A stretch of 64,000 bases of DNA from Escherichia phage moskry, in the sequence record MN850651.1. One strand, given 5' to 3'. The position numbers and the translations under genes were made by a program. The notes below the pieces were generated by a model. The model was given only the letters and a program-made list of their open reading frames with translations, had not been told where the DNA came from and did not search any database. The first letter of the stretch is position 1; the number at the start of each line of letters is the position of its first letter. Shown one piece after another: positions 1,571 through 43,802 of the stretch.

Positions 1571-1843
1571 TTAGTTGTTAGAATACATCGCTAAATGACG
1601 ATAAATATTTTCAAAACCTTCATTGAATTCACTAATCAGTGTTTTCTTTTCTTCGGCAGTTAAATTTGTAATTAGTTTTCTGAACGAATTCTGATTTAGC
1701 TGCCGACCATCTTTTTTAATTCCAATCTCATTCAAGAATCCGATGAAACTTGCTCGGTCTTCAACAATATCTTCCCTAGAGAATTTAATCAAAATAGAAG
1801 CAATAGTAATAATTTCACGTACGATTTCAATGTCTTTATTCAT
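1571..1843 (-). CDS. asiA: anti-sigma70 protein AsiA
   Basis: 90 aa, MNKDIEIVREIITIASILIKFSREDIVE.. closely matches T4 AsiA from memory; position after t as in T4. Confidence 0.9.
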   Translation of the reverse strand: MNKDIEIVREIITIASILIKFSREDIVEDRASFIGFLNEIGIKKDGRQLNQNSFRKLITNLTAEEKKTLISEFNEGFENIYRHLAMYSNN

Positions 1844-3704: not shown

Positions 3705-4337
3705 TCACAGTACGTTAGTTACAAGGGTAATGATTTCTTTGGACACATTAGGGAAGTCAATGTAAGTATATTTACCACCGATCTTAATCTTAACATCATT
3801 TTCAAGAGAAGTAAACAGCTTTGATTCAGTTTCTGACATGTTGTATGCAAAGATTCTAAGAGAACCATCTCGACGAATTTCGATCTGACGAATACCTAGA
3901 ACTCGTTTAGCGAATCGAACTTCTAAGTTACTACGGTTTTCACCAATTTCTTTAACTTCAACTTTATCTTTAATATTTTCAAAAACAAAGTTTGCTAATT
4001 CATGCATTTCAGGAGTAACTCCACGTGCTTTTCTAGTGTTACGTTTCTGAAGAAGTTCTGGAGCATTTTCTTGGGCAAAGAGGTCTGCAGCTTTTTGGAT
4101 AATATCCATTGCTTCGCCTGTTGCTACAAGTCCATCACCGGATTTTTCGACTAAACCTTTCTTAATCAATACACCAATGTTAGAGTTAACAACCGACGCA
4201 TTGTATTCTGCTTCCAGAGCTTCACGGACATTGGCAGCAGTGGTGAAGTTGTTCTTAATGATATAAACCATTATTGCAGCAGTTTTTTCATTCAGAGCGT
4301 TTTCAGAAGCTTTGATGATGTAAGTAACTTTAGACAT
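3705..4337 (-). CDS. motA: middle-transcription activator MotA
   Basis: 210 aa; MSKVTYIIKASENALNEKTAA.. and NSNIGVLIKKGLVEKSGDGL motif match T4 MotA as recalled; SD GGAGAAA upstream. Confidence 0.9.
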   Translation of the reverse strand: MSKVTYIIKASENALNEKTAAIMVYIIKNNFTTAANVREALEAEYNASVVNSNIGVLIKKGLVEKSGDGLVATGEAMDIIQKAADLFAQENAPELLQKRNTRKARGVTPEMHELANFVFENIKDKVEVKEIGENRSNLEVRFAKRVLGIRQIEIRRDGSLRIFAYNMSETESKLFTSLENDVKIKIGGKYTYIDFPNVSKEIITLVTNVL

Positions 4338-21360: not shown

Positions 21361-21434
21361 TCTTTTTTCATAAAATGCTTTAATTTTTTATGTGTTATAA
21401 TGGTTCTGAGTTCCATCCGGTTATTCCAATTCAG

Positions 21435-29588: not shown

Positions 29589-29906
29589 TTAGATTTCCTC
29601 ACAGAACGCCCATTCAGCATGATAAACTGTAGCGCCTTTAGTATCATTCATTTGAACTACATCTACCGGAGAAATTACTCGATAGAGACGTGGTTCACCT
29701 CCATAAGAGCGTGCTGCTCGTCCTGCATAAATCTTTGCTAAACCGATATCTTCAGTAAAGAATACACGATCCAAGTTTTTCTTACGTCCAGTTTCAGACA
29801 GAACTCCTGTTTCCTCAGGAGGACAAAGCATGTTTTCGATGTTAGCTGAACTACTTGAACCGTGATAAAAAATCTTAAATTCTGCTTTACAATCGATGGT
29901 TTTCAT
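29589..29906 (-). CDS. hypothetical protein (105 aa)
   Basis: ORF track. Confidence 0.5.
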   Translation of the reverse strand: MKTIDCKAEFKIFYHGSSSSANIENMLCPPEETGVLSETGRKKNLDRVFFTEDIGLAKIYAGRAARSYGGEPRLYRVISPVDVVQMNDTKGATVYHAEWAFCEEI

Positions 29907-33481: not shown

Positions 33482-34030
33482 TTAACGAGCCCATTTAATG
33501 ATTTCTGTAATCAAATAATTACGTTCGCTTGCATTAAATCCTATAACTTTGTTAGCACCATCATGATTAAGTAATTGATACGTTTGGATTTTGTTATGAA
33601 TTGCAAACTCTTCAAAATATGAAATGACTGTATTAAAACCGAATGAAGACAAAGTAATAAGGTCGTCTTCAAAACTTTCAGTCATTTCGTTACGTGTTAA
33701 AATAATTGTGAACACATCATGGTTTTGGCAAAGACGAACATAATCCTGTTCATAAACATCAAGAACCGAGTCCGCATCTTGTCGAATACGTCCATAAACC
33801 CAGTTACTAATATATCCACGGTCTAACAGATAAATCTTAGTAGGGTCTAAATAATTCAACATCGTTTCGAAACAGCCGACTTCATTTCGAGACTTAACAT
33901 CGAAACGCCCATCAACTGTTCGTTTAGGGAAATCAATCTTTACATATCTTTCACTAATTTCCATTATGTCATTAATGAAAGTTGTTTTACCAGCATTATC
34001 CGGCCCGTCTACTAAAATAATTTTAGCCAT
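33482..34030 (-). CDS. P-loop kinase (nucleotide- or sugar-kinase-like), function unknown
   Basis: 182 aa; Walker A ..ILVDGPDNAGKTTF.. near the N-terminus, ..YLLDRGY.. downstream; not present at this position in T4. Confidence 0.5.
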   Translation of the reverse strand: MAKIILVDGPDNAGKTTFINDIMEISERYVKIDFPKRTVDGRFDVKSRNEVGCFETMLNYLDPTKIYLLDRGYISNWVYGRIRQDADSVLDVYEQDYVRLCQNHDVFTIILTRNEMTESFEDDLITLSSFGFNTVISYFEEFAIHNKIQTYQLLNHDGANKVIGFNASERNYLITEIIKWAR

Positions 34031-34031
34031 T

Positions 34032-34931
34032 TTATTCCTCGATTACGACATCTTCGTATTTAGGTATATTATACGGTGAAGAAATTAAAGCATTAAAGTA
34101 GATGAACTCACCAAGACCTGGATGGAATACTTCTTCAGGATTTTCGAAATATTGAATCTTCGGACGTCCTTTAAGAATTTGATAGTACTCAGTTTTAGTT
34201 GGATTAAAAATTCGAATCAGCGCTTCTTCAGGATACTTATTTCTGTCGAAGCTATTATTTGGATCGGTTATATAAAGCGGTTGACCTAATTGAATTGCGC
34301 ATTCAACCACTTGTTCAAAACGATAACACGGGTCACTAATTCGAAATGGATGAAAAATACCATCTAGATGAATAGGAGCCAAATCACCTACAAGACGCTG
34401 CATGATGGAAGGACGTATAACTTTCTGAGTTACGATAATCTTATTACCATCTGCACCTGCGTTAACCAGCACTTCTTTTTGACGTTCATTCAACACAGTA
34501 GTTTGAAGTGAACTATTAACTGACAACATATCGGTTTTTAAGAATTCGTCAATATAAAAACGTGGTTTATTAGGGTCTGCCGTGATATTGAAATTGAATT
34601 CTACATCAAAAGCGCCGTCATAACCAGTGATATCTGTTATTAGAAAATCACAATCATAATAAGCAATTAATGAATCAACCACAAATTCATTTTCAGACCA
34701 GAAATATTTACGAGTGTTATACGCGTTATCTTTATACCATAATGGAACAAACTTAAATTCCGGGAAAAGACGTTCACATTCTTTAATATCAGATGCATTA
34801 CGTGGATATGTAATCACATCACCTGGATTAGCACGGTGCAAATGAAGTTGGAAGTTGCCATCCTTAAGGATAGCATACTGTCCAGTTTCATAAGACCGCA
34901 TACTCAAAATAGGTACGCGGAAAATAGCCAT
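34032..34931 (-). CDS. hypothetical protein (299 aa) occupying the T4 beta-glucosyltransferase position
   Basis: ORF track; stop/start coupled to the kinase and hydroxymethylase genes; no motif I can assign with confidence. Confidence 0.5.
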   Translation of the reverse strand: MAIFRVPILSMRSYETGQYAILKDGNFQLHLHRANPGDVITYPRNASDIKECERLFPEFKFVPLWYKDNAYNTRKYFWSENEFVVDSLIAYYDCDFLITDITGYDGAFDVEFNFNITADPNKPRFYIDEFLKTDMLSVNSSLQTTVLNERQKEVLVNAGADGNKIIVTQKVIRPSIMQRLVGDLAPIHLDGIFHPFRISDPCYRFEQVVECAIQLGQPLYITDPNNSFDRNKYPEEALIRIFNPTKTEYYQILKGRPKIQYFENPEEVFHPGLGEFIYFNALISSPYNIPKYEDVVIEE

Positions 34932-35647
34932 TAGTCAAGAAATCCTTTAACATAATCAAAATCACGTTCAAACACATGGGCACTTACCATGGTATGAGTA
35001 TAATCACCAACTTCTACACCACATTCGTTAGCGATATAATGAAGTAATTTTCCTTGGAGATAAAAATCCAACTGCATAACAACAGCACAGTTCTGAGAAC
35101 GCATATGACAGTGGGTATAAAGCTTACCATCACGAATATAATAAGTCACTGAGTCAGTACATGGATATTCAAGTGTTTCGTCCGAATCAAGCAAAGCCTG
35201 ATCAGAACTTTCTAGAATTTGGAACACAACTCTTCGAGAGTTAGGTTTCTCTTTAAGTTCTTTTAGAAGAGCCGGTAATTGGGCCGCAATGCGAGGACCG
35301 TAGAAAGTGTTGAAGTTTGCAGGCAAAGCGTCTGATTTAGGTTTAGAAATAAATTTAGCGACATTAGGATATGCCTTAAACGCTTCTTCTGCATCAGTAC
35401 CACCAGAAATCATAAACTTCCAGAAGTCTTCGGCATATTCATAAGAGATGCGGTTAATACGTGGGTCGGTCATTTTGAATGATGATGGATTGTCAACAAC
35501 TACTGTCATGGACCCGATTTCATTACAACGTCCAATACGAGAATTAGTTACGAATTCGGGGTTTTCTAAAATTTCACGATTGACTGCTTTAAATGCGGTT
35601 TGAAAATCTGCGGCTTTGATATATTTCATTGTGTTATGTTTTCCCAT
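34931..35647 (-). CDS. 42: thymidylate-synthase-fold dNMP hydroxymethylase (gene-42-like, probably dCMP-specific)
   Basis: 238 aa; ..LEYPCTDSVTYYIRDGKLYTHCHMRSQNCAVVMQLDFY.. aligns with the TS/dCMP-HMase catalytic Cys segment (P-C..Y.(I/V)RD(G/K)K..(Q/N)..RS.D) with Asp at the base-specificity position. Confidence 0.65.
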   Translation of the reverse strand: MGKHNTMKYIKAADFQTAFKAVNREILENPEFVTNSRIGRCNEIGSMTVVVDNPSSFKMTDPRINRISYEYAEDFWKFMISGGTDAEEAFKAYPNVAKFISKPKSDALPANFNTFYGPRIAAQLPALLKELKEKPNSRRVVFQILESSDQALLDSDETLEYPCTDSVTYYIRDGKLYTHCHMRSQNCAVVMQLDFYLQGKLLHYIANECGVEVGDYTHTMVSAHVFERDFDYVKGFLD

Positions 35648-35689
35648 GTTTACCTCAATACAATTTATTATATACTCAATTCGTAAAGC

Positions 35690-35929
35690 TTATTTGAATT
35701 TCTTAGCAATGTTGATATAACGTAAAGCTTCAGAATCTATACTTCCAAGAACACTATGAAGGAATGCATCAGCGTAGTATTCTAGTTGAACAGGTTCTTT
35801 AATCGCTTTAGCCGCTTTAGTTTCAAACAGGCCCATAAGGGCCTTTTTAAGAATTTGTTCGTTGCTATTAATTTTTATGGTCAAAATCTCTTCATTAAGT
35901 TGGTGGTTAAAAGTTTTTCTAGAAATCAT
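35690..35929 (-). CDS. hypothetical protein (79 aa)
   Basis: ORF track; overlaps the upstream gene by 4 nt. Confidence 0.4.
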   Translation of the reverse strand: MISRKTFNHQLNEEILTIKINSNEQILKKALMGLFETKAAKAIKEPVQLEYYADAFLHSVLGSIDSEALRYINIAKKFK

Positions 35930-37104
35930 TCCGGGTACCTCAAAGCGTCGTCAGAGTTAGTTATATCAATAATAGATATAGAATTTTCTGATAACCCATT
36001 TTTAGATAACTGGCGTTTATAATATCTTTCACAATATGTACACGTCGTCCCGCAGATTTCATTAGCACAATCGAAATCTGGATGTCTGAACCACCTTTTT
36101 TCTAAAAAGCCGTCTAACAAAGAGGTTTCAATATTTACCGTATGTGAAAACTCGGTCTCATTTTCAAGAGTGAAAATGGTCTCTAAAGGCTTCCACAATT
36201 CCAACAAATTACCTTCAAACTTTTCAGAAGCATAAGCTTCAAGAACTTTCAAAATGTAGTCGGTGCTACCTGTACGTCCCGAAACTTTAAATTGAGTGAT
36301 ACCAATATCGTTATAAAGTTTCAAATCTTGGGGACGAACAAAACGAGTTCTCAACCAGTTAAATGGGTCTGTATCACGAGCTTTAATACAGTGCTGCATA
36401 GGATATCCGTTTAAGGATTTAGCATCATCAGCCGTAACATCAGTACTATGGAAAATATAGCAAGAGTCACGATAGCTACAATGTGTTGTATACCCTTTAC
36501 CAGCATTAGAACAGAACTCATTTACAAGAACTTCAAATATTATATTGTTCTTATTGCAAAACTCTGCTGCACGCTTCAGGAAAGAAACTGAACGGTTCTT
36601 ATGAATTCCACAGCAGACCTTTTTGATATTATATTGGTCATGCAAGTATTTGATTTGAGTTACAGCATCGACATGTAGAATTGTTGAAACTTCAATCTCA
36701 ATGTCTTTATTGACTTCACGAACAATTTCCATAACAACAGGGTTAGCGATAGTAATACGCCATACGCCTATTGACCAAAGATACTGAACATAATCCTGAA
36801 TAGCTTTCTTCTTCCACTCAACTAGTTCTCTTTTTGAACCAGGATTTATCGTGTTGAGTGTATAGTTAAAGCAAATACCTAATTCGTTACAACGTTTAAC
36901 GTAGTCTTCTAACATCTTTTTGTCAACGTCAGGAAGCCTAAAATCAGGTCTGGCTGCTACAAAAGCCATTTCTCTTGTAGAGCCGTATACTTCGTTTATC
37001 AAGCTATTAGGATAAGTTTTATTGAGCTCTACGATTTTATCAAGAAGAGCTAAATCAAAATTCGTTCCGATTTTAAAAGTATTCATTTTTTTTTTGCATC
37101 TCAC
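35926..37104 (-). CDS. Cys-rich protein of unknown function (392 aa); candidate metal-dependent enzyme/transferase
   Basis: ORF track; Cys clusters (..EFCSNAGKGYTTHCSYRDSCY.. and C-terminal ..CANEICGTTCTYC..); part of the sugar module. Confidence 0.5.
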   Translation of the reverse strand: MRCKKKMNTFKIGTNFDLALLDKIVELNKTYPNSLINEVYGSTREMAFVAARPDFRLPDVDKKMLEDYVKRCNELGICFNYTLNTINPGSKRELVEWKKKAIQDYVQYLWSIGVWRITIANPVVMEIVREVNKDIEIEVSTILHVDAVTQIKYLHDQYNIKKVCCGIHKNRSVSFLKRAAEFCNKNNIIFEVLVNEFCSNAGKGYTTHCSYRDSCYIFHSTDVTADDAKSLNGYPMQHCIKARDTDPFNWLRTRFVRPQDLKLYNDIGITQFKVSGRTGSTDYILKVLEAYASEKFEGNLLELWKPLETIFTLENETEFSHTVNIETSLLDGFLEKRWFRHPDFDCANEICGTTCTYCERYYKRQLSKNGLSENSISIIDITNSDDALRYPE

Positions 37105-37145
37105 GTTAATTGATGCGATGGTTTTTGCAGGTCTTACTTAAATTA

Positions 37146-37547
37146 TTATAGATTAGGTTTATATGATTTAAATGTTTCGAATTCGCCTTTATTCATAAGA
37201 GCTTTGAATTCGTCAGGACGCATAGCTTTGTCGTCGATAATCCAATCATATACTGGTTTATGTGTTAGCAAATTATGGTACTTCAAGCCAATGTTTGCTA
37301 AGTTCTGAATCAGACTTGGGAGAATGTCAATTGCTATACGACCAGGACCTACTGACTTCATACCGCGAGCAGTGTAAAGCGTTATGGTATGCCCTGCATC
37401 ATACAGGGCATTAATGGCAGACACCATTTCGACGTCTGGTTTGAAGTTCACGTAATCACGATTGTTATTCCACTCTGTTATACAATCATCGACATCAAAA
37501 CAAAGATTAAGCATGTTTTCTACACGGTGCATTAGATTCGTTCCCAT
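37146..37547 (-). CDS. HAD-superfamily phosphatase (small, cap-less)
   Basis: 133 aa; motif I ..LCFDVDDCIT.., motif II ..TLYTARG.., motif IV ..WIIDDK.. Confidence 0.55.
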   Translation of the reverse strand: MGTNLMHRVENMLNLCFDVDDCITEWNNNRDYVNFKPDVEMVSAINALYDAGHTITLYTARGMKSVGPGRIAIDILPSLIQNLANIGLKYHNLLTHKPVYDWIIDDKAMRPDEFKALMNKGEFETFKSYKPNL

Positions 37548-39217
37548 TGATGAGTGATATCGCCACCAATTGGGCGATAAGAAACACCAGTTTCTTTATC
37601 AGTTAGTACCCATTTACCAGGATTTTTTGTAATCAGAGTAGCCGTTACAGGTTCTGCTACGTCATAACTAATAGAGCCGTCTTGAAGTACACGGCCCATG
37701 TTACGTAATTGCTTAGTCAGAAGTTCCATACCTTTATAATATGCAGCTACCGCTTTAAGTGGATTATTCTTGAAATAACCACCTAATGCAATCCAGATAA
37801 TTGCCACTGCCAAATGATGATACTCGTTAAACGAACTCATCTTTCCATATTTGTAAACTAATGGATTGATGTTAATAGTCACATTACAAGTTGTTTCATC
37901 AATAGTAAACTGTCCCCAGGTCGGATTAGCGTTGAATTCATCATAACCTGAAACAGCATAAAGCACTTTAGCTTCATCGTACAATTTTGGCCCGTAAATC
38001 TTGGTTTCCCCAAAATATCCACGAGGGTCGATAAACTTGACTTCGCCGTTATCAGTAATCATAGTATTACTGAAGTTCGGGTCACCATGAATAACAGAGT
38101 ACTGTCCCTGAGAACGGTTATGATAACGAATAAGGTGTTCTAAAGCTTGTTTCAGCATTGGCTTCAGACGCCCAATCTTAGTGTAGTTCACATGGGTGAT
38201 TTTACCAAATGAATCAATCAATGGTTGAATGCTTTCACAACGATCAATAACTTTCGTATAGAATTCTTTAGTGAAATCACGGCGAACAGTTTCAGGACTT
38301 ACAAAATAAGTGTCTGTGCTGAATTTCAGTGCATCTAAAATTGCATCAACAATTTGTGGACGAGCAAGACTTGATTTGGATTTAATATATTCAAATGCCG
38401 GCTTACCTTTAATGCGTTCCATTTCAAAGTTATTTTCATTAACAGAAACTAACTGAGGAACTGAATCTGATTTCACTTTAAGATACCATGAAATCTCATC
38501 TTTCTGAAGAGCTCGACCCTGTTCGGTTAATGCGAATTTAGTTACAGTTTCTTCACCAATTTCAACTGCATTAAAACTACGATTAAGTTCACGAACTTCA
38601 TGAGCTTTTTCAAGTTTAGGCATATCACCTAAATCAATTAGATTCATAAGCTCTGATTTATTGAATGCGCTGCCGTAAAGGAATTCTACGAAATCGCGTC
38701 CTTTGCAGTATTCATGAATTTCCTCATCGGTAGAACCCATATAGAATTCCCAGTCTTTGAACTGATAAATTCCTACAACATTACCACCTGTTGAACCTAC
38801 GTTAGTGATATTTTCACCGTCGAAATTATATCGACATTCGTCACCCTTAACATAGATTGCGTTAACATTCCAAGACCATGAACCAAAATCGGGAATAATA
38901 TCACACCAGTTAACAATTACATTATGGCCGTCTAAATCTTTGTGTAATTTAGCAAGAGCATAAGCAGAACCGTACGCTTCATCAACTGTACGAATAGTCA
39001 CATTGAACCCTTCTTGCTCACAATAAGCTCGAACAGTTTCAGCAAATTTTGAATGAACTACTACAATAATTTCATCTGCGCCAAGGTCAGAATAAATTGT
39101 ATACAAATTGCTCAGAATAGTGTCTTGTTTATAGTTAACAAGCACCTTAGGAATATGATGCGTTATTGGATATAAACGAGTCGCCAGTCCAGCACCAAGA
39201 ATAACAGCTTTTTTCAT
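37532..39217 (-). CDS. bifunctional sugar-1-phosphate nucleotidyltransferase (N) / APH-choline-kinase-like anomeric sugar kinase (C)
   Basis: 561 aa; N-terminus MKKAVILGAGLATRLYPITHHIPKVLV (G-x-G-x-R-L-x-P-x-T..PK-x-L nucleotidyltransferase signature); C-terminal ..VIHGDPNFSNTMIT..VKFIDPRGYFG.. (H-G-D-x-x-x-N and I-D-x-x kinase motifs). Confidence 0.7.
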   Translation of the reverse strand: MKKAVILGAGLATRLYPITHHIPKVLVNYKQDTILSNLYTIYSDLGADEIIVVVHSKFAETVRAYCEQEGFNVTIRTVDEAYGSAYALAKLHKDLDGHNVIVNWCDIIPDFGSWSWNVNAIYVKGDECRYNFDGENITNVGSTGGNVVGIYQFKDWEFYMGSTDEEIHEYCKGRDFVEFLYGSAFNKSELMNLIDLGDMPKLEKAHEVRELNRSFNAVEIGEETVTKFALTEQGRALQKDEISWYLKVKSDSVPQLVSVNENNFEMERIKGKPAFEYIKSKSSLARPQIVDAILDALKFSTDTYFVSPETVRRDFTKEFYTKVIDRCESIQPLIDSFGKITHVNYTKIGRLKPMLKQALEHLIRYHNRSQGQYSVIHGDPNFSNTMITDNGEVKFIDPRGYFGETKIYGPKLYDEAKVLYAVSGYDEFNANPTWGQFTIDETTCNVTININPLVYKYGKMSSFNEYHHLAVAIIWIALGGYFKNNPLKAVAAYYKGMELLTKQLRNMGRVLQDGSISYDVAEPVTATLITKNPGKWVLTDKETGVSYRPIGGDITHQWERI

Positions 39218-39245
39218 GTTGAAGTCCTCATTGGTAAGTAGGAGT

Positions 39246-39270
39246 ATTGTACACTATTCTAGTTAAAGCA
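39246..39270 (-). promoter_or_regulatory. candidate MotA-dependent middle promoter (MotA box TGCTTTA, 12 nt, -10 TACAAT) upstream of the nucleotidyltransferase/kinase gene
   Basis: Read on - strand: GAATGCTTTAAC..TACAAT about 30 nt upstream of the ATG. Confidence 0.4.
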
Positions 39271-39398
39271 TTCATACTTTGCTTGTAGTCCAATCATAAT
39301 CCATCCAATTACAAGTGTTGGAATCATTACTGGAGCCGTTAAGCTCCAGTAGATAGTCATGACAAGCATCAATAGTAAAAGTCCTATTGTTATTGCTT

Positions 39399-40034
39399 TC
39401 ATTGTTCGCCTCGTAACATGGCACCTAGTGCACCGCCTGGATGGAACTTAAGGAAGTCATTAGAGGTAAATCCACGCTCAGACGAAAGGTTGATAGCGAA
39501 CGTATCGATAAGCGCTAACAACAATGTAGTGGACATAGTCGGAGCTAAAGAGTTCTCGTCAACTTCTACCGCGATACCGGTACAGAACGTATAATCAAAA
39601 AGAGCTTCGTATTCTTGTGGAATGTCAGGGTTACAATGCAACAGAATCTGTTTGACGTTCGGGCGAATCATTTTAAGATGCTTAGCCACGCCTATCATTT
39701 CTTCAGTTTTACCAGAACGACTAATATGAATCAACACATCATTAGGCGCAATGAATCCTGCATCACCGTGAGAATAATGCCCAGTGTTCAAGTACATACT
39801 AGGGATACCGAGTGAAGCAAATGTCTCAGAAGCTTTAGTTGCAATATTAGCATTCTTACCAACACCTGTAATAATTACTCGGCTTTCATAATTACTAAGT
39901 CCCGGGCGTCGAAGAGTTTCTAGAATAGCATTATAACGAGCAGGGTTTTGACTAATTACTTTGGCCATAGCGGCCAAAGAAGAAGCTTGTTTTATGATTG
40001 CGTCAATAGCGATAGTAATAGGAGTAGTTTTCAT
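39399..40034 (-). CDS. SIS-domain sugar-phosphate isomerase (arabinose-5-phosphate isomerase-like, no CBS domains)
   Basis: 211 aa; ..ITGVGKNANIATKASETFASLGIPS.., ..HISRSGKTEE.. typical SIS (KpsF/GutQ/KdsD-type) motifs. Confidence 0.65.
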   Translation of the reverse strand: MKTTPITIAIDAIIKQASSLAAMAKVISQNPARYNAILETLRRPGLSNYESRVIITGVGKNANIATKASETFASLGIPSMYLNTGHYSHGDAGFIAPNDVLIHISRSGKTEEMIGVAKHLKMIRPNVKQILLHCNPDIPQEYEALFDYTFCTGIAVEVDENSLAPTMSTTLLLALIDTFAINLSSERGFTSNDFLKFHPGGALGAMLRGEQ

Positions 40035-40074
40035 ATTTCTCTCATTTAATTAGTTTACCGTCCATGTCATTATA

Positions 40075-42786
40075 TCAAAAATCGAACATATCGAACAGAG
40101 ATGCTTTCTTCTCGTAATCGAGTTTCGCCGCTGATGTGAATCCTTCAAGTGGTTTAATAAATGTCTTCTCAAGGAGAACCGTGTAGTCCATCCAATGAAG
40201 TACATCATCTTTGATTAAATCAGTGATTTCAGTACCAGAAGGCCATGCGATACATTTATCACCGAATGGGTTTCCTTCACGTAAAGGCAGAACATATACT
40301 TTTTCACCTTCTACAACTTGTGGTGCATCGATATTACCTTTGATAGCCCGGTTATACGTCAGAATTCCACGAATATGGAACGGGCATTTAGGACCAGGGA
40401 ATCCACCTACATCATATTTAGCAATGTTATTCGCAGAAGATACCGACGCGATGCTAATATAATTCAATTGACGGAATTCTTTTTCAAACTCTTTAAAATA
40501 TTCTTGTAATGATTCTTCACCTTCTTGAAGCATACGACGAATACATTCCTTAAGAGCTTTCTGTACTGCTTTAGGGGTTGAAGATTTCTGTGTTTCGAGA
40601 CCCATGATTTTAAGCTTAGGTTCAGCGTATCTAGTTCCTTCCATATCCCACACGTTTAATGCATAACGTTTCTTACCAGTCCAAAATCCACCAATACCTT
40701 TAGAACCAAGCGGAGGTCCAGCGATAGCTTCTCGGTCCATGAACATCAAATGTTGCTTATTATTCATGTATTCGCACATTTCACGGAAACCTCTATCAAT
40801 AGCAGGTTCCATACGTTCACGAGCGAACTTATCTAAGAAGTCTACCCAATGGTTAGTATCGCGGAATTTAGATTCACCAACCTTATCAATAATTTTATCT
40901 GCAGATACGTAAATGGAGTCTGTATCACCATATAGAACGAAAGCTTCACCTTCTGTACCACAAACTTCATTCAGATATTCATTAACTTTACGTTCAATCC
41001 ACTGTAAAGCCATTTGACCAAATGTTGTGATTGCAGTAGCATTACGCAAATCGTAATAACGGAACCAAACGTTGCCAAGTGCACCATAAAGTGAGTTGAT
41101 AAGCAATTTACGGTTAATTTGGGCAGTCATACCTGCAACTTCAGTACGTTGAGCTCTAAACAACATTTCATTAAGAGATTTAGCAGACAACTTTTTAATC
41201 TTTTCTTTAATCTCATCGCTAAAGTCGAAACGATAATCAACATCTAATGGTTCGTCAACAGAAAGATTAGGATTATGCAACGCCTCTTTAATTATTTCAC
41301 CATTACGTTGAGCCGCAAGCATATAACCTTTATGTTCTTTACGTTGATTAAAGACTTTAGTGATTTCAGTTGGAACTACACCATCACGGTCTTTATAATA
41401 CATCATGCCGTTAGGAGAGCAACTGTACACATCAGAAGGACGTTCAGCAACAGCGTTAATATAATCATGCAATGGAGCTACTTTAAACGTTCCTGCTATT
41501 GTTTCTGGGCTAATATTCACTTGGCGAATAATACTTGGATACAGAGATGTAAGGTCGAAACTCATTACATATTTGTATCGATTTGGAATAGGTTCCTTAA
41601 CAAAAGCGCCAGGATAAGGTTGAACTGGATGCGAACGACCTTGTGGAATCACCTTGTTCTGCTCTTTAAGGCTATTGAAAATAATAGCGTCCCAAGTTTT
41701 AATTGGACTGAACACAGATTGAATCTGAATTTTAGCATAATACCCCATGTCCAAACTCAAGTTAATGAACTGGCGTTTAGCATCAATTTGCAATACACGA
41801 TACACGTCGATAATGTTATAAGAAATATATCGTTGGTGATTGCTTTCACGAAGCTTAGAAATAGGGCCGTCATATTTCAGTTTACCAACGTTCAATTCAA
41901 ATTCTGAAATGTAATCCAGAGAATATGACGGTTGGTTCGTGAAAGAGAACTTTTTGTAAAGGTCAATGTAATCAAGAACAGAGATACCGAACAATGTAAT
42001 GATTTCACGAGAACCATACATGTTTTCGATAACTTTAACACGAGTTTTACGATGTGGTGATAAACGTTTCGCAGTAGATTCGCCAAAAATATTCTTGATT
42101 CGGTTATACACATATGGAATATCAAATGACTCAACGTTCCATCCAGTCAAAATGACAGGAGTTTTCTGTTGCCAGAAGTTGAGATATTCCATCAATAATT
42201 CTTTTTCATTATCAAACGGCATATAAACGATTTTGTCGATAATTTCGGATGGAACTTCATCACCACCTTGTTCTTGAAGCTTAGCTGCAATTTCGATAGA
42301 CCATTCTTCTACATTACCATATGGAGAATTCAATAGATCAAATACGTAGAACCTGTCGTCAATTGAGTCATAATGGGTGATGGCATCAATTGGATGTTTT
42401 GCTTGTGACGGCTCAGGGAACCCATCCGGAGATGTTACTTCGATGTCGAAGTTAGCCACACGAATTTTTGTATGGTCGTATTTGATTTCATAGTTATAAG
42501 TGTCAGACAAATACGCCAATTTGAAATCGTCCATGCCAAGTGCTTCAAGTCCGATATCTTCCATGCGTTTAATCCATTGGGAGGCATCACGCATATTAGC
42601 GAACAACTTACGAGTACACGGCTTACCGTAGATATCGAAATATTTCGTAGCCTGACTTTCTGGACAATGAGCAAACAGTGATGGTTTATATTCTACTTCA
42701 CGAGTACGTTCACGGCCATTAGAATCGATGTAACGTTCAAAAATTGAATCACCAATCTGTTCAACCGTTAAGTAAAATTCTTTCAT
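40075..42786 (-). CDS. 43: DNA polymerase gp43 (family B, RB69-type)
   Basis: 903 aa; N-terminus MKEFYLTVEQIGDSIFERYIDSNGRERTREVEYKPSLFAHCPE.. and exo/pol motifs (..FDIEV.., ..YGDTDS..) match the RB69 polymerase sequence as I remember it. Confidence 0.97.
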   Translation of the reverse strand: MKEFYLTVEQIGDSIFERYIDSNGRERTREVEYKPSLFAHCPESQATKYFDIYGKPCTRKLFANMRDASQWIKRMEDIGLEALGMDDFKLAYLSDTYNYEIKYDHTKIRVANFDIEVTSPDGFPEPSQAKHPIDAITHYDSIDDRFYVFDLLNSPYGNVEEWSIEIAAKLQEQGGDEVPSEIIDKIVYMPFDNEKELLMEYLNFWQQKTPVILTGWNVESFDIPYVYNRIKNIFGESTAKRLSPHRKTRVKVIENMYGSREIITLFGISVLDYIDLYKKFSFTNQPSYSLDYISEFELNVGKLKYDGPISKLRESNHQRYISYNIIDVYRVLQIDAKRQFINLSLDMGYYAKIQIQSVFSPIKTWDAIIFNSLKEQNKVIPQGRSHPVQPYPGAFVKEPIPNRYKYVMSFDLTSLYPSIIRQVNISPETIAGTFKVAPLHDYINAVAERPSDVYSCSPNGMMYYKDRDGVVPTEITKVFNQRKEHKGYMLAAQRNGEIIKEALHNPNLSVDEPLDVDYRFDFSDEIKEKIKKLSAKSLNEMLFRAQRTEVAGMTAQINRKLLINSLYGALGNVWFRYYDLRNATAITTFGQMALQWIERKVNEYLNEVCGTEGEAFVLYGDTDSIYVSADKIIDKVGESKFRDTNHWVDFLDKFARERMEPAIDRGFREMCEYMNNKQHLMFMDREAIAGPPLGSKGIGGFWTGKKRYALNVWDMEGTRYAEPKLKIMGLETQKSSTPKAVQKALKECIRRMLQEGEESLQEYFKEFEKEFRQLNYISIASVSSANNIAKYDVGGFPGPKCPFHIRGILTYNRAIKGNIDAPQVVEGEKVYVLPLREGNPFGDKCIAWPSGTEITDLIKDDVLHWMDYTVLLEKTFIKPLEGFTSAAKLDYEKKASLFDMFDF

Positions 42787-42845
42787 TTAATTTCCTTTAG
42801 ACGAGTTATTGTCTTTTGTTTGTTGATGAACTTATTATACTCCAA

Positions 42846-42863
42846 ATGGGACCGAAGTCCCAT
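42846..42863 (-). terminator. hairpin AUGGGAC-CGAA-GUCCCAU between regA and gene 43 (terminator/RNA-stability element); TATAAT box follows at about 42834-42839
   Basis: Perfect stem read directly; flanks are not strongly U-rich. Confidence 0.4.
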
Positions 42864-42867
42864 TGCT

Positions 42868-43236
42868 TTAATTACCAATTGTATATTTTGCTTTCAAAGT
42901 CCAGTCATCTTTCTGTTTAAAAGAGATAACACGGAAGTTATTAGTTAGGCCAAACAGATCTTCACGAGCAGAGTCTTCAATAACAATCAATCCCCAGTCT
43001 TCAAGCAACTGGGCAATCGAATCACGTCGTTGGTAGTCTTCACCATCAATATCAACTTGACGCCCGTCCATACGCAACATTTCTTTAAAGTGGACGATGT
43101 AATATTTACCTTGCTTTTGGAGGATATGACAGGACTGATAAAGAACTTTATCCTTGTTATTAGCGATGCCCATACGGGTCAGAGTCTCTTTGACTTTAAG
43201 AAAATCTTCGGGGTTCTTCAATTTAATTTCGATCAT
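42868..43236 (-). CDS. regA: translational repressor RegA
   Basis: 122 aa from internal Met MIEIKLKNPEDFLKVKETLTRMGIANNKDKVLYQSCHILQK.. matching T4 RegA; track ORF has a 3-codon extension. Confidence 0.9.
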   Translation of the reverse strand: MIEIKLKNPEDFLKVKETLTRMGIANNKDKVLYQSCHILQKQGKYYIVHFKEMLRMDGRQVDIDGEDYQRRDSIAQLLEDWGLIVIEDSAREDLFGLTNNFRVISFKQKDDWTLKAKYTIGN

Positions 43237-43238
43237 TT

Positions 43239-43802
43239 TTACCATTCCAATGCTAATTTTTTAAATTGTTTTTGTTCTTTCACATTTTTTGTAACTTCTT
43301 TGAGAAACTCATCAGTGACCATGGCCTTCAGTTCTTTAAGGACTATTGGCAGCTTGTTATTTTTTTCAAGGAGCCGCTTATACTCGGTAGCATCATTCAT
43401 GTTGATTGTGTAACGTTTCATCAACAGTTTGATAACTAGTAACTCTGAAGTGTCTTCGACTAGTTTAGCCCATTTAGAGAATCGACGACCATGCGGAATT
43501 GCCGCCATCATATAGTTGAAGTGCGCTTCATCACTTAATTCAGAACCGACTAAGTTCATCATGTAAACGGCTGGCATACATTCCGGGAACTGTGATAATG
43601 AGTTCTCAACCATAAATTTTGAGTAGTCGACCTGAGCAATTGACATAGATTTCTTTTCATTAATAGCATTAATGATTTTAAAGAATTCATTCTCAGGTTT
43701 TTCTTTAAACATGTCAGCACATTTTTGAATCGCATCAGCGTCGTTAGACTTCCATGCGATTTGGTGCTCGTTAAGCTGGACGTCATCATCAAATAAGTTC
43801 AT
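43239..43802 (-). CDS. 62: clamp loader small subunit gp62
   Basis: 187 aa, position and size as T4 gp62. Confidence 0.85.

Follow-up and report, generated by a model that had tools for sequence, protein, structure and literature searches.

The window analysed here is a stretch of 64,000 nucleotides from Escherichia phage moskry (sequence record MN850651.1). Around the site described below, it shares 98.7% identity with Escherichia phage PhAPEC2 and 97.7% with RB69 (Mosigvirus, Tevenvirinae). In minus-strand order this region carries gene 43, an isomerase gene, a small open reading frame (ORF), a gene encoding a 561-aa protein, and genes for a HAD-type phosphatase, a U32 peptidase and a thymidylate-synthase homologue, followed by others (Table 1). 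The site considered below runs from the 3' end of the small ORF into the gap before the 561-aa gene. An earlier note, made from the letters of the sequence, had described the gene downstream of this site as a sugar-activation gene, and comparison with known phages agrees with that description: the 561-aa protein is the counterpart of, and 99.6% identical to, RB69 ORF053c+052c (gp52:53), which is split in the GenBank record by a sequencing error (PMC6024577). The function proposed for gp52:53 is that of an arabinose-phosphate kinase and UDP-arabinose pyrophosphorylase, i.e., an analogue of AfhE (PMC13326640, PMC6024577). The phosphatase encoded next has been proposed to be an AfhF analogue, and the modified base of RB69 has been revised to arabinosylated 5-hydroxycytosine (both PMC13326640).

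Table 1. Genes, elements of the predicted promoter and other predicted promoter-like sites in the window, listed along the minus strand.
Feature	Coordinates	Strand	Remarks
Orthologue of the T4 gene 43 promoter P43 (predicted)	42834..42864	minus	hairpin AATGGGACTTCGGTCCCATT, then GGAGTATAAT; TATAAT at 42839..42834
Gene 43 (DNA polymerase)	40075..42786	minus	
Perfect extended -10 element TGATATAAT	40069..40077	minus	34 nt before the isomerase ATG (40034)
SIS-domain arabinose-5-phosphate isomerase gene	39399..40034	minus	
Small hydrophobic ORF	39259..39402	minus	47 aa; RB69ORF054c homologue; its 3' end carries the MotA box
MotA box GAATGCTTTA (predicted)	39264..39273	minus	centred at about -30; core TGCTTTA at 39270..39264
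12-nt spacer ACTAGAATAGTG	39252..39263	minus	holds the TAG stop of the small ORF
Sigma-70 -10 element TACAAT (predicted)	39246..39251	minus	5/6 against TAtaaT; non-coding DNA
Predicted transcript start (A at 39239 +/-1) and 22-nt 5'UTR	39218..39239	minus	placed by the T4 -10-to-start distance
Shine-Dalgarno sequence GAGGA	39229..39225	minus	within the 22-nt 5'UTR
Gene of the 561-aa protein	37532..39217	minus	nucleotidyltransferase (N-terminal) and kinase-like (C-terminal); Pfam NTP_transferase E = 8.5e-10 and weak kinase-family matches
Second MotA-type match AAGTGCTTTATGCTGTTTCAGGTTATGAT	37940..37968	minus	within the 561-aa gene; 401 nt upstream of the phosphatase start
HAD-type phosphatase gene	37146..37532	minus	RB69 gp51 counterpart; start overlaps the stop of the 561-aa gene; the start annotated in PhAPEC2 maps to 37532
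Predicted middle promoter	35667..35693	minus	13 nt before the thymidylate-synthase-like (5-hydroxy-dCMP synthase) gene start at 35647
Predicted middle promoter	34068..34095	minus	before the nucleotide kinase gene start at 34030
Highest-scoring match AAATGCTTTAATTTTTTATGTGTTATAAT	21373..21401	plus	spacer between srd and a ModB-like gene
motA	3705..4337	minus	Pfam MotA_activ E = 2.4e-39, MotCF E = 2.1e-08
asiA	1571..1843	minus	co-activator and anti-sigma-70 factor; Pfam AsiA E = 2.4e-32

Read on the minus strand, the site and the sequence through the start codon are 5'-GAATGCTTTAAC TAGAATAGTG TACAAT ACTCCTACTTACCAATGAGGACTTCAAC ATG. The earlier note had placed a possible MotA-box middle promoter at 39246-39270, which is exactly the span from TGCTTTA through TACAAT. 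The published consensus for such promoters is (a/t)(a/t)(a/t)TGCTTtA separated by 12+/-1 bp from TAtaaT (PMC2988021). At this site the box core matches the MotA consensus (a/t)(a/t)(a/t)TGCTT(t/c)A at 7/7 positions, while the first of the three flanking a/t positions is a G, and the hexamer TACAAT is identical to that of the mapped T4 middle promoter PnrdG. The 12-nt gap named in the note is right when counted, as is the convention, from the end of TGCTTTA; after the 12-mer GAATGCTTTAAC only 10 nt separate the two blocks. The -10 element ends 28 nt before the ATG (39217..39215) of the ORF at 37532..39217, close to the "about 30 nt" given in the note. From the 6-7 nt that separate the -10 element and the start in T4 promoters, we infer that a transcript would begin near 39239, and other sites with high scores in the window likewise have predicted 5'UTRs of 13-39 nt.

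To quantify the match, we used T4 middle promoters that had been identified by experiment and whose start sites are tabulated in PMC2988021 (Table 1); the T4 GenBank record AF158101, examined for annotated promoter features, contained none. Thirty of these promoters fall within T4 1-50000 and were aligned on their box and -10 element, and the 25 with spacers of 11-13 nt were turned into a log-odds matrix; Pdam, PsegA, P43, P55 and PnrdC1 were left out (spacers outside 11-13 nt, or ambiguous alignment). The site scored 16.2 bits with this T4-trained matrix, with 10.4 bits from the box and a modest 5.0 from the extended -10 element, compared with a range of 10.5-22.1 bits (median 18.2) in the training set. 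Its 12-nt spacing is also the modal one in T4, being found in 16/30 mapped promoters.

Sites of this kind are strongly enriched in the window. We found 16 matches to the loose pattern TGCTTNA-N11-13-TANNNT, 11 of them on the gene strand, as against 3.57 +/- 1.89 in 100 dinucleotide shuffles, none of which (0/100) reached 16. With the matrix, 18 matches of at least 16 bits lay on the gene (minus) strand and 2 on the plus strand, whereas a first-order Markov null gives 0.28 per strand. Seven of the matches of at least 16 bits, this site among them, have a predicted start that is followed 16-39 nt later by an annotated ATG; multiplying the null rate by the fraction of the window in such positions, we estimate that fewer than 0.05 would be expected there by chance. 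Several of the window matches are orthologous to the mapped T4 promoters P39, P52, P47, P45.2, P56, P46i2, PnrdD and P55.8(2); the genes preceded by such orthologous matches include 39, 52, 47, 45.2, 56, 46, uvsX and nrdD.

Both regulators of middle transcription are encoded in the window (Table 1). The window MotA is 51% identical to T4 MotA overall, with divergence spread unequally over its two domains (68/95 identical residues, or 72%, in the activation domain and 33/105, or 31%, in the DNA-binding domain). Since the T4-trained matrix recovers enriched, strand-specific sites, the box specificity of MotA has evidently been retained. Taken together, the box, the 12-nt spacer and the -10 element with no -35 element, the presence of motA and asiA, the enrichment of such sites and their conservation (see below) support the MotA-dependent reading offered in the earlier note, and we consider it very probable, judging from sequence, that a functional MotA-dependent middle promoter lies upstream of the kinase/pyrophosphorylase gene.

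A real promoter at this position could alternatively be independent of MotA, with host sigma-70 polymerase acting on the -10 element alone to give weak early or constitutive transcription. In four other genera a TGG precedes the -10 element, yielding TGgTACAAT, an extended -10 that would be workable without a -35 element, and the neighbouring isomerase gene is likewise preceded by an extended -10 without a box. In the window and in Mosigvirus generally, however, the hexamer is preceded as GTG-TACAAT, so that the TG is offset by one base from the register that an extended -10 requires. With the -10 element itself imperfect and no match to a -35 element (the best match to TTGACA at 16-18 nt spacing is 3/6, and a generic sigma-70 scan did not return this site), unaided activity should be poor. 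Moreover, T4 early promoters have a strong -35 element, TGn and UP elements (PMC2988021), all of which are absent here, and the invariant GCTT at the right 12-nt distance would be left unexplained. We therefore regard this alternative as quite improbable, and a sigma-70 early promoter was rejected for want of a -35 match. A late (gp55-dependent) promoter, or an element of some other kind such as an RNA processing site, is an extremely improbable reading: the late motif TATAAATA occurs 0 times on either strand of 36000-43500, which led us to reject a late promoter, the leader has no GGAG site of the RegB type, and the architecture is that of a two-block promoter.

We then compared the site across related phages. 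A search of viral contigs with the 561-aa protein gave 3 related loci, and phage GenBank records were used instead; homologues of the protein were present in 373 phage records, and the upstream regions of twelve were fetched and scanned. The site region itself is found in all 153 Mosigvirus records at 95-100% identity. Beyond these, box with flank, spacer and hexamer were found in Serratia phage X20 (CAGTGCTTTAAT, TAAATGATGG, TACAAT; 17.9 bits), Kosakonia phage Kc304 (GAATGCTTTAAC, TGATTGATGG, TACAAT; 19.4 bits), Enterobacter phage CIP9 (AATTGCTTCAAT, TAAATTATGG, TACAAT; 19.6 bits), Yersinia phage fHe-Yen9-01 (AATTGCTTCAAT, TGAATAATGG, TACAAT; 19.6 bits) and Klebsiella phage Potts1 (CTTCGCTTTAAT, TATTATGTAG, TACAAT; 16.6 bits), with the -10 element ending 25-28 nt before the ATG in all five. 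In nine aligned sequences from six genera (Mosigvirus, Winklervirus, Kanagawavirus, Tegunavirus and those of Kosakonia phage Kc304 and Klebsiella phage Potts1), GCTT-AA-T, GTACAAT, GAGGA and the ATG are invariant, while the sequences of the spacer and leader vary and the spacer length stays at 12 nt in all six genera. These promoter blocks are thus invariant despite the downstream proteins being only 43-73% identical. No box was found in the upstream regions of the JS98 and Proteus phage Pm5461 orthologues.

The Acinetobacter phages DLP1, Maestro and Acj9 show a different arrangement, namely a hairpin and a TGnTAT(A/T)AT promoter that precede the orthologous gene by about 30-60 nt, the element upstream of the promoter being a different one. 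DLP1 and Maestro share a conserved tACTTTA 14 nt upstream of the -10 element, which is outside the T4 spacing range, and all three phages encode only a distant MotA-like protein (~29% identity).

Conservation of this kind could in part have another source, as the box also serves as the E-C-F codons at the end of the small ORF and takes in the first base of the N codon. The match might then be a by-product of the coding end of that ORF (C-F-N-stop) next to an AT-rich spacer, with the 561-aa gene expressed solely by read-through from P43 and early promoters. The C-terminal peptide K-Y/F-x-C-F/I-N of the small ORF is conserved even in T4, and because the box overlaps the conserved C-F-N-stop codons, part of its conservation may be coding. 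That coding conservation can mimic a signal is illustrated by the internal match AAGTGCTTTATGCTGTTTCAGGTTATGAT, which lies within the 561-aa gene, scores higher than the site studied here and tracks a conserved peptide. By contrast, several observations are hard to reconcile with a coding by-product. The TACAAT hexamer is outside any ORF and is invariant across the six genera while its neighbours vary. In Potts1 the gene directly follows the polymerase gene with no small ORF in between, so that the box is non-coding there; it abuts a terminator-like hairpin, as do the boxes of T4 P39 and P47. T4 retains the peptide (...KYECIN) but encodes it with TGT ATC and has no promoter there, meaning that the peptide does not force the motif. 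In every promoter-bearing genus the Cys codon in the box is TGC, the rarer one (TGC 25%, TGT 75% of Cys codons in 97 genes of the window). Finally, the number of false positives expected per strand of the window at this score is far below the 18 matches observed. Considering this, we think it unlikely that the match is only a by-product of coding sequence, and keep to a MotA-dependent promoter as the preferred reading.

The question of read-through also bears on how much such a promoter would contribute. We found no convincing terminator between gene 43 and the 561-aa gene. The orthologue of P43 is conserved (a hairpin followed by the promoter sequence, laid out as in T4, with about 48 nt between the TATAAT and the gene 43 ATG at 42786), although the T4 P43 box is too atypical for the matrix. 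Given this conservation and the lack of a terminator, read-through from P43 probably contributes to transcription of the downstream genes, which is usual for T4 middle genes (PMC2988021), and the promoter at 39246-39270 may therefore not be needed for the 561-aa gene to be expressed.

The earlier note had further suggested that, if the promoter is real, the module is expressed in the middle mode alongside replication genes. The promoter can serve only the gene for the kinase/pyrophosphorylase and those that follow it. The isomerase gene, whose product makes the first intermediate of the pathway, is situated upstream of the site, and its transcription must begin elsewhere. The isomerase gene is preceded by the extended -10 element TGATATAAT, in which the opening two bases of the gene 43 stop codon supply the TG and which has neither a MotA box nor a -35 element; this element may serve the first gene of the pathway as a MotA-independent promoter.

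Other predicted promoters lie in the same cluster and elsewhere in the window. The internal match AAGTGCTTTATGCTGTTTCAGGTTATGAT scores 18.3 bits, above the 16.2 bits of the site, and is conserved in Acinetobacter phage Maestro (19.1 bits), a Providencia phage (18.0) and Potts1 (15.6). It is in frame with the peptide V-L-Y-A-x-S-G-Y-D and is not among the RB69 promoters listed by Nolan et al. (see below). The SA35RD record labels it a T4-like middle promoter, an annotation that the 39246-39270 site does not have there. Conservation of a peptide motif, a genuine internal promoter, or the two combined could account for it. Further matrix matches precede the 5-hydroxy-dCMP synthase and nucleotide kinase genes (Table 1) and correspond to RB69 Pm:26264 and Pm:24665, respectively, of Nolan et al. 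2006; with these, the cluster appears to be dotted with middle promoters. The top score in the window, 23.0 bits, belongs to AAATGCTTTAATTTTTTATGTGTTATAAT on the non-gene strand, which reads antisense into the ModB-like gene; we found no plausible plus-strand gene downstream of it, and it may match the weak plus-strand call Pm:12081 of Nolan et al.

If the MotA-dependent reading holds, transcription from the site would proceed as follows. AsiA and MotA would be made early in infection. AsiA would remodel region 4 of host sigma-70 such that the -35 element is no longer usable, MotA would contact the box GAATGCTTTA at about -30 as well as the extreme C-terminal end of sigma-70, and sigma-70 region 2 would bind TACAAT. 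The leader of a transcript starting near 39239 would be 22 nt long and contain GAGGA as its ribosome-binding site, and the transcript would cover the kinase/pyrophosphorylase gene, then the translationally coupled phosphatase gene, and probably extend into further downstream genes of the cytosine-modification cluster. The result would be a middle-mode (prereplicative) burst added to the read-through from the gene 43 promoter. The dependence of the site on MotA and AsiA, the timing of its expression and the extent of its transcription unit are thus what we infer from the sequence and from the T4 model.

An active promoter here would mean that synthesis of UDP-arabinose, the sugar donor for the arabinosylated cytosine in RB69-type DNA, joins the replication genes in the prereplicative programme controlled by MotA. 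This would parallel T4, in which middle promoters serve gene 42 and also the genes for the glucosyltransferases; such an outcome is expected rather than surprising. The site would have modest uses of two kinds: as a defined control point for the timing of the modification pathway, one that can be mutated synonymously (TGC to TGT), and as one clean case in which several Tevenvirinae genera have conserved a middle promoter.

How does the site relate to what is known from T4? RB69ORF054c is annotated as "similar to T4 42-imm intercistronic region". In the imm-42 spacer of T4 (AF158101 26227..26376, minus strand) we found an unannotated 49-aa hydrophobic ORF, which is homologous to RB69ORF054c and to the small ORF of the window (57% identity over 30 aa, E = 6e-14). 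The MotA-dependent T4 promoter P42 (start 26320) lies inside this homologous small ORF, just downstream of the gene 43 region, and like the window site it drives the first DNA-modification gene of its cluster. The two differ in position and in the gene that they drive: P42 (CATTGCTTTT-12-TATAAT) sits near the 5' end of the small ORF and drives the dCMP hydroxymethylase gene, whereas the window site is found at the 3' end of the ORF and beyond, about 90 nt further downstream, and drives an unrelated sugar kinase/pyrophosphorylase gene. Neither T4 nor the window has a promoter match at the position used by the other. We thus rejected the window site as a direct positional orthologue of P42, the two being about 90 nt apart and the sequences at the two positions not corresponding, and the relationship between them suggests promoter turnover rather than strict orthology.

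One could go further and envisage a mobile cassette of promoter, leader and sugar-activation gene that has moved across Straboviridae genera, replacing P42-type promoters, with MotA co-evolving with a modified box. The Potts1 copy lies directly behind a terminator with no small ORF. Under such a scenario, the promoter in Mosigvirus-like phages would have replaced an ancestral P42-type one within the same micro-ORF, which would be a case of turnover; the cytosines of the box would be arabinosylated 5-hydroxycytosine in the infecting DNA, and the diverged DNA-binding domain of MotA may read them. We consider this scenario conceivable but doubtful.

The closest known counterpart of the site is itself a prediction. 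Nolan et al. (2006; Virol J 3:30, Additional file 4) listed 32 predicted middle promoters in RB69, one of which, Pm:29842 (29802..29842, minus strand), has the same GAATGCTTTAAC-TAGAATAGTG-TACAAT before ORF053c, with box, spacer and -10 element identical to those reported here. As Pm:29842 is exactly this site, the promoter is already in the literature as a prediction, and that call is, like ours, purely computational (HMM score 17.7). It predates the recognition of the downstream gene as a single UDP-arabinose enzyme, and the window comes from a different Mosigvirus isolate with two substitutions in the leader. A literature search for transcriptomics or 5'-end mapping in RB69 or Mosigvirus found none; a September 2026 preprint on a Mosigvirus states that time-resolved RNA sequencing is still to be done for such phages, and the papers on RB69 modification do not discuss promoters. 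The T4 promoters PnrdG, P39 and P47 drive other genes and have been mapped experimentally, whereas the window site is predicted. Set beside these T4 promoters and the RB69 call, the site is an ordinary, previously predicted kind of feature.
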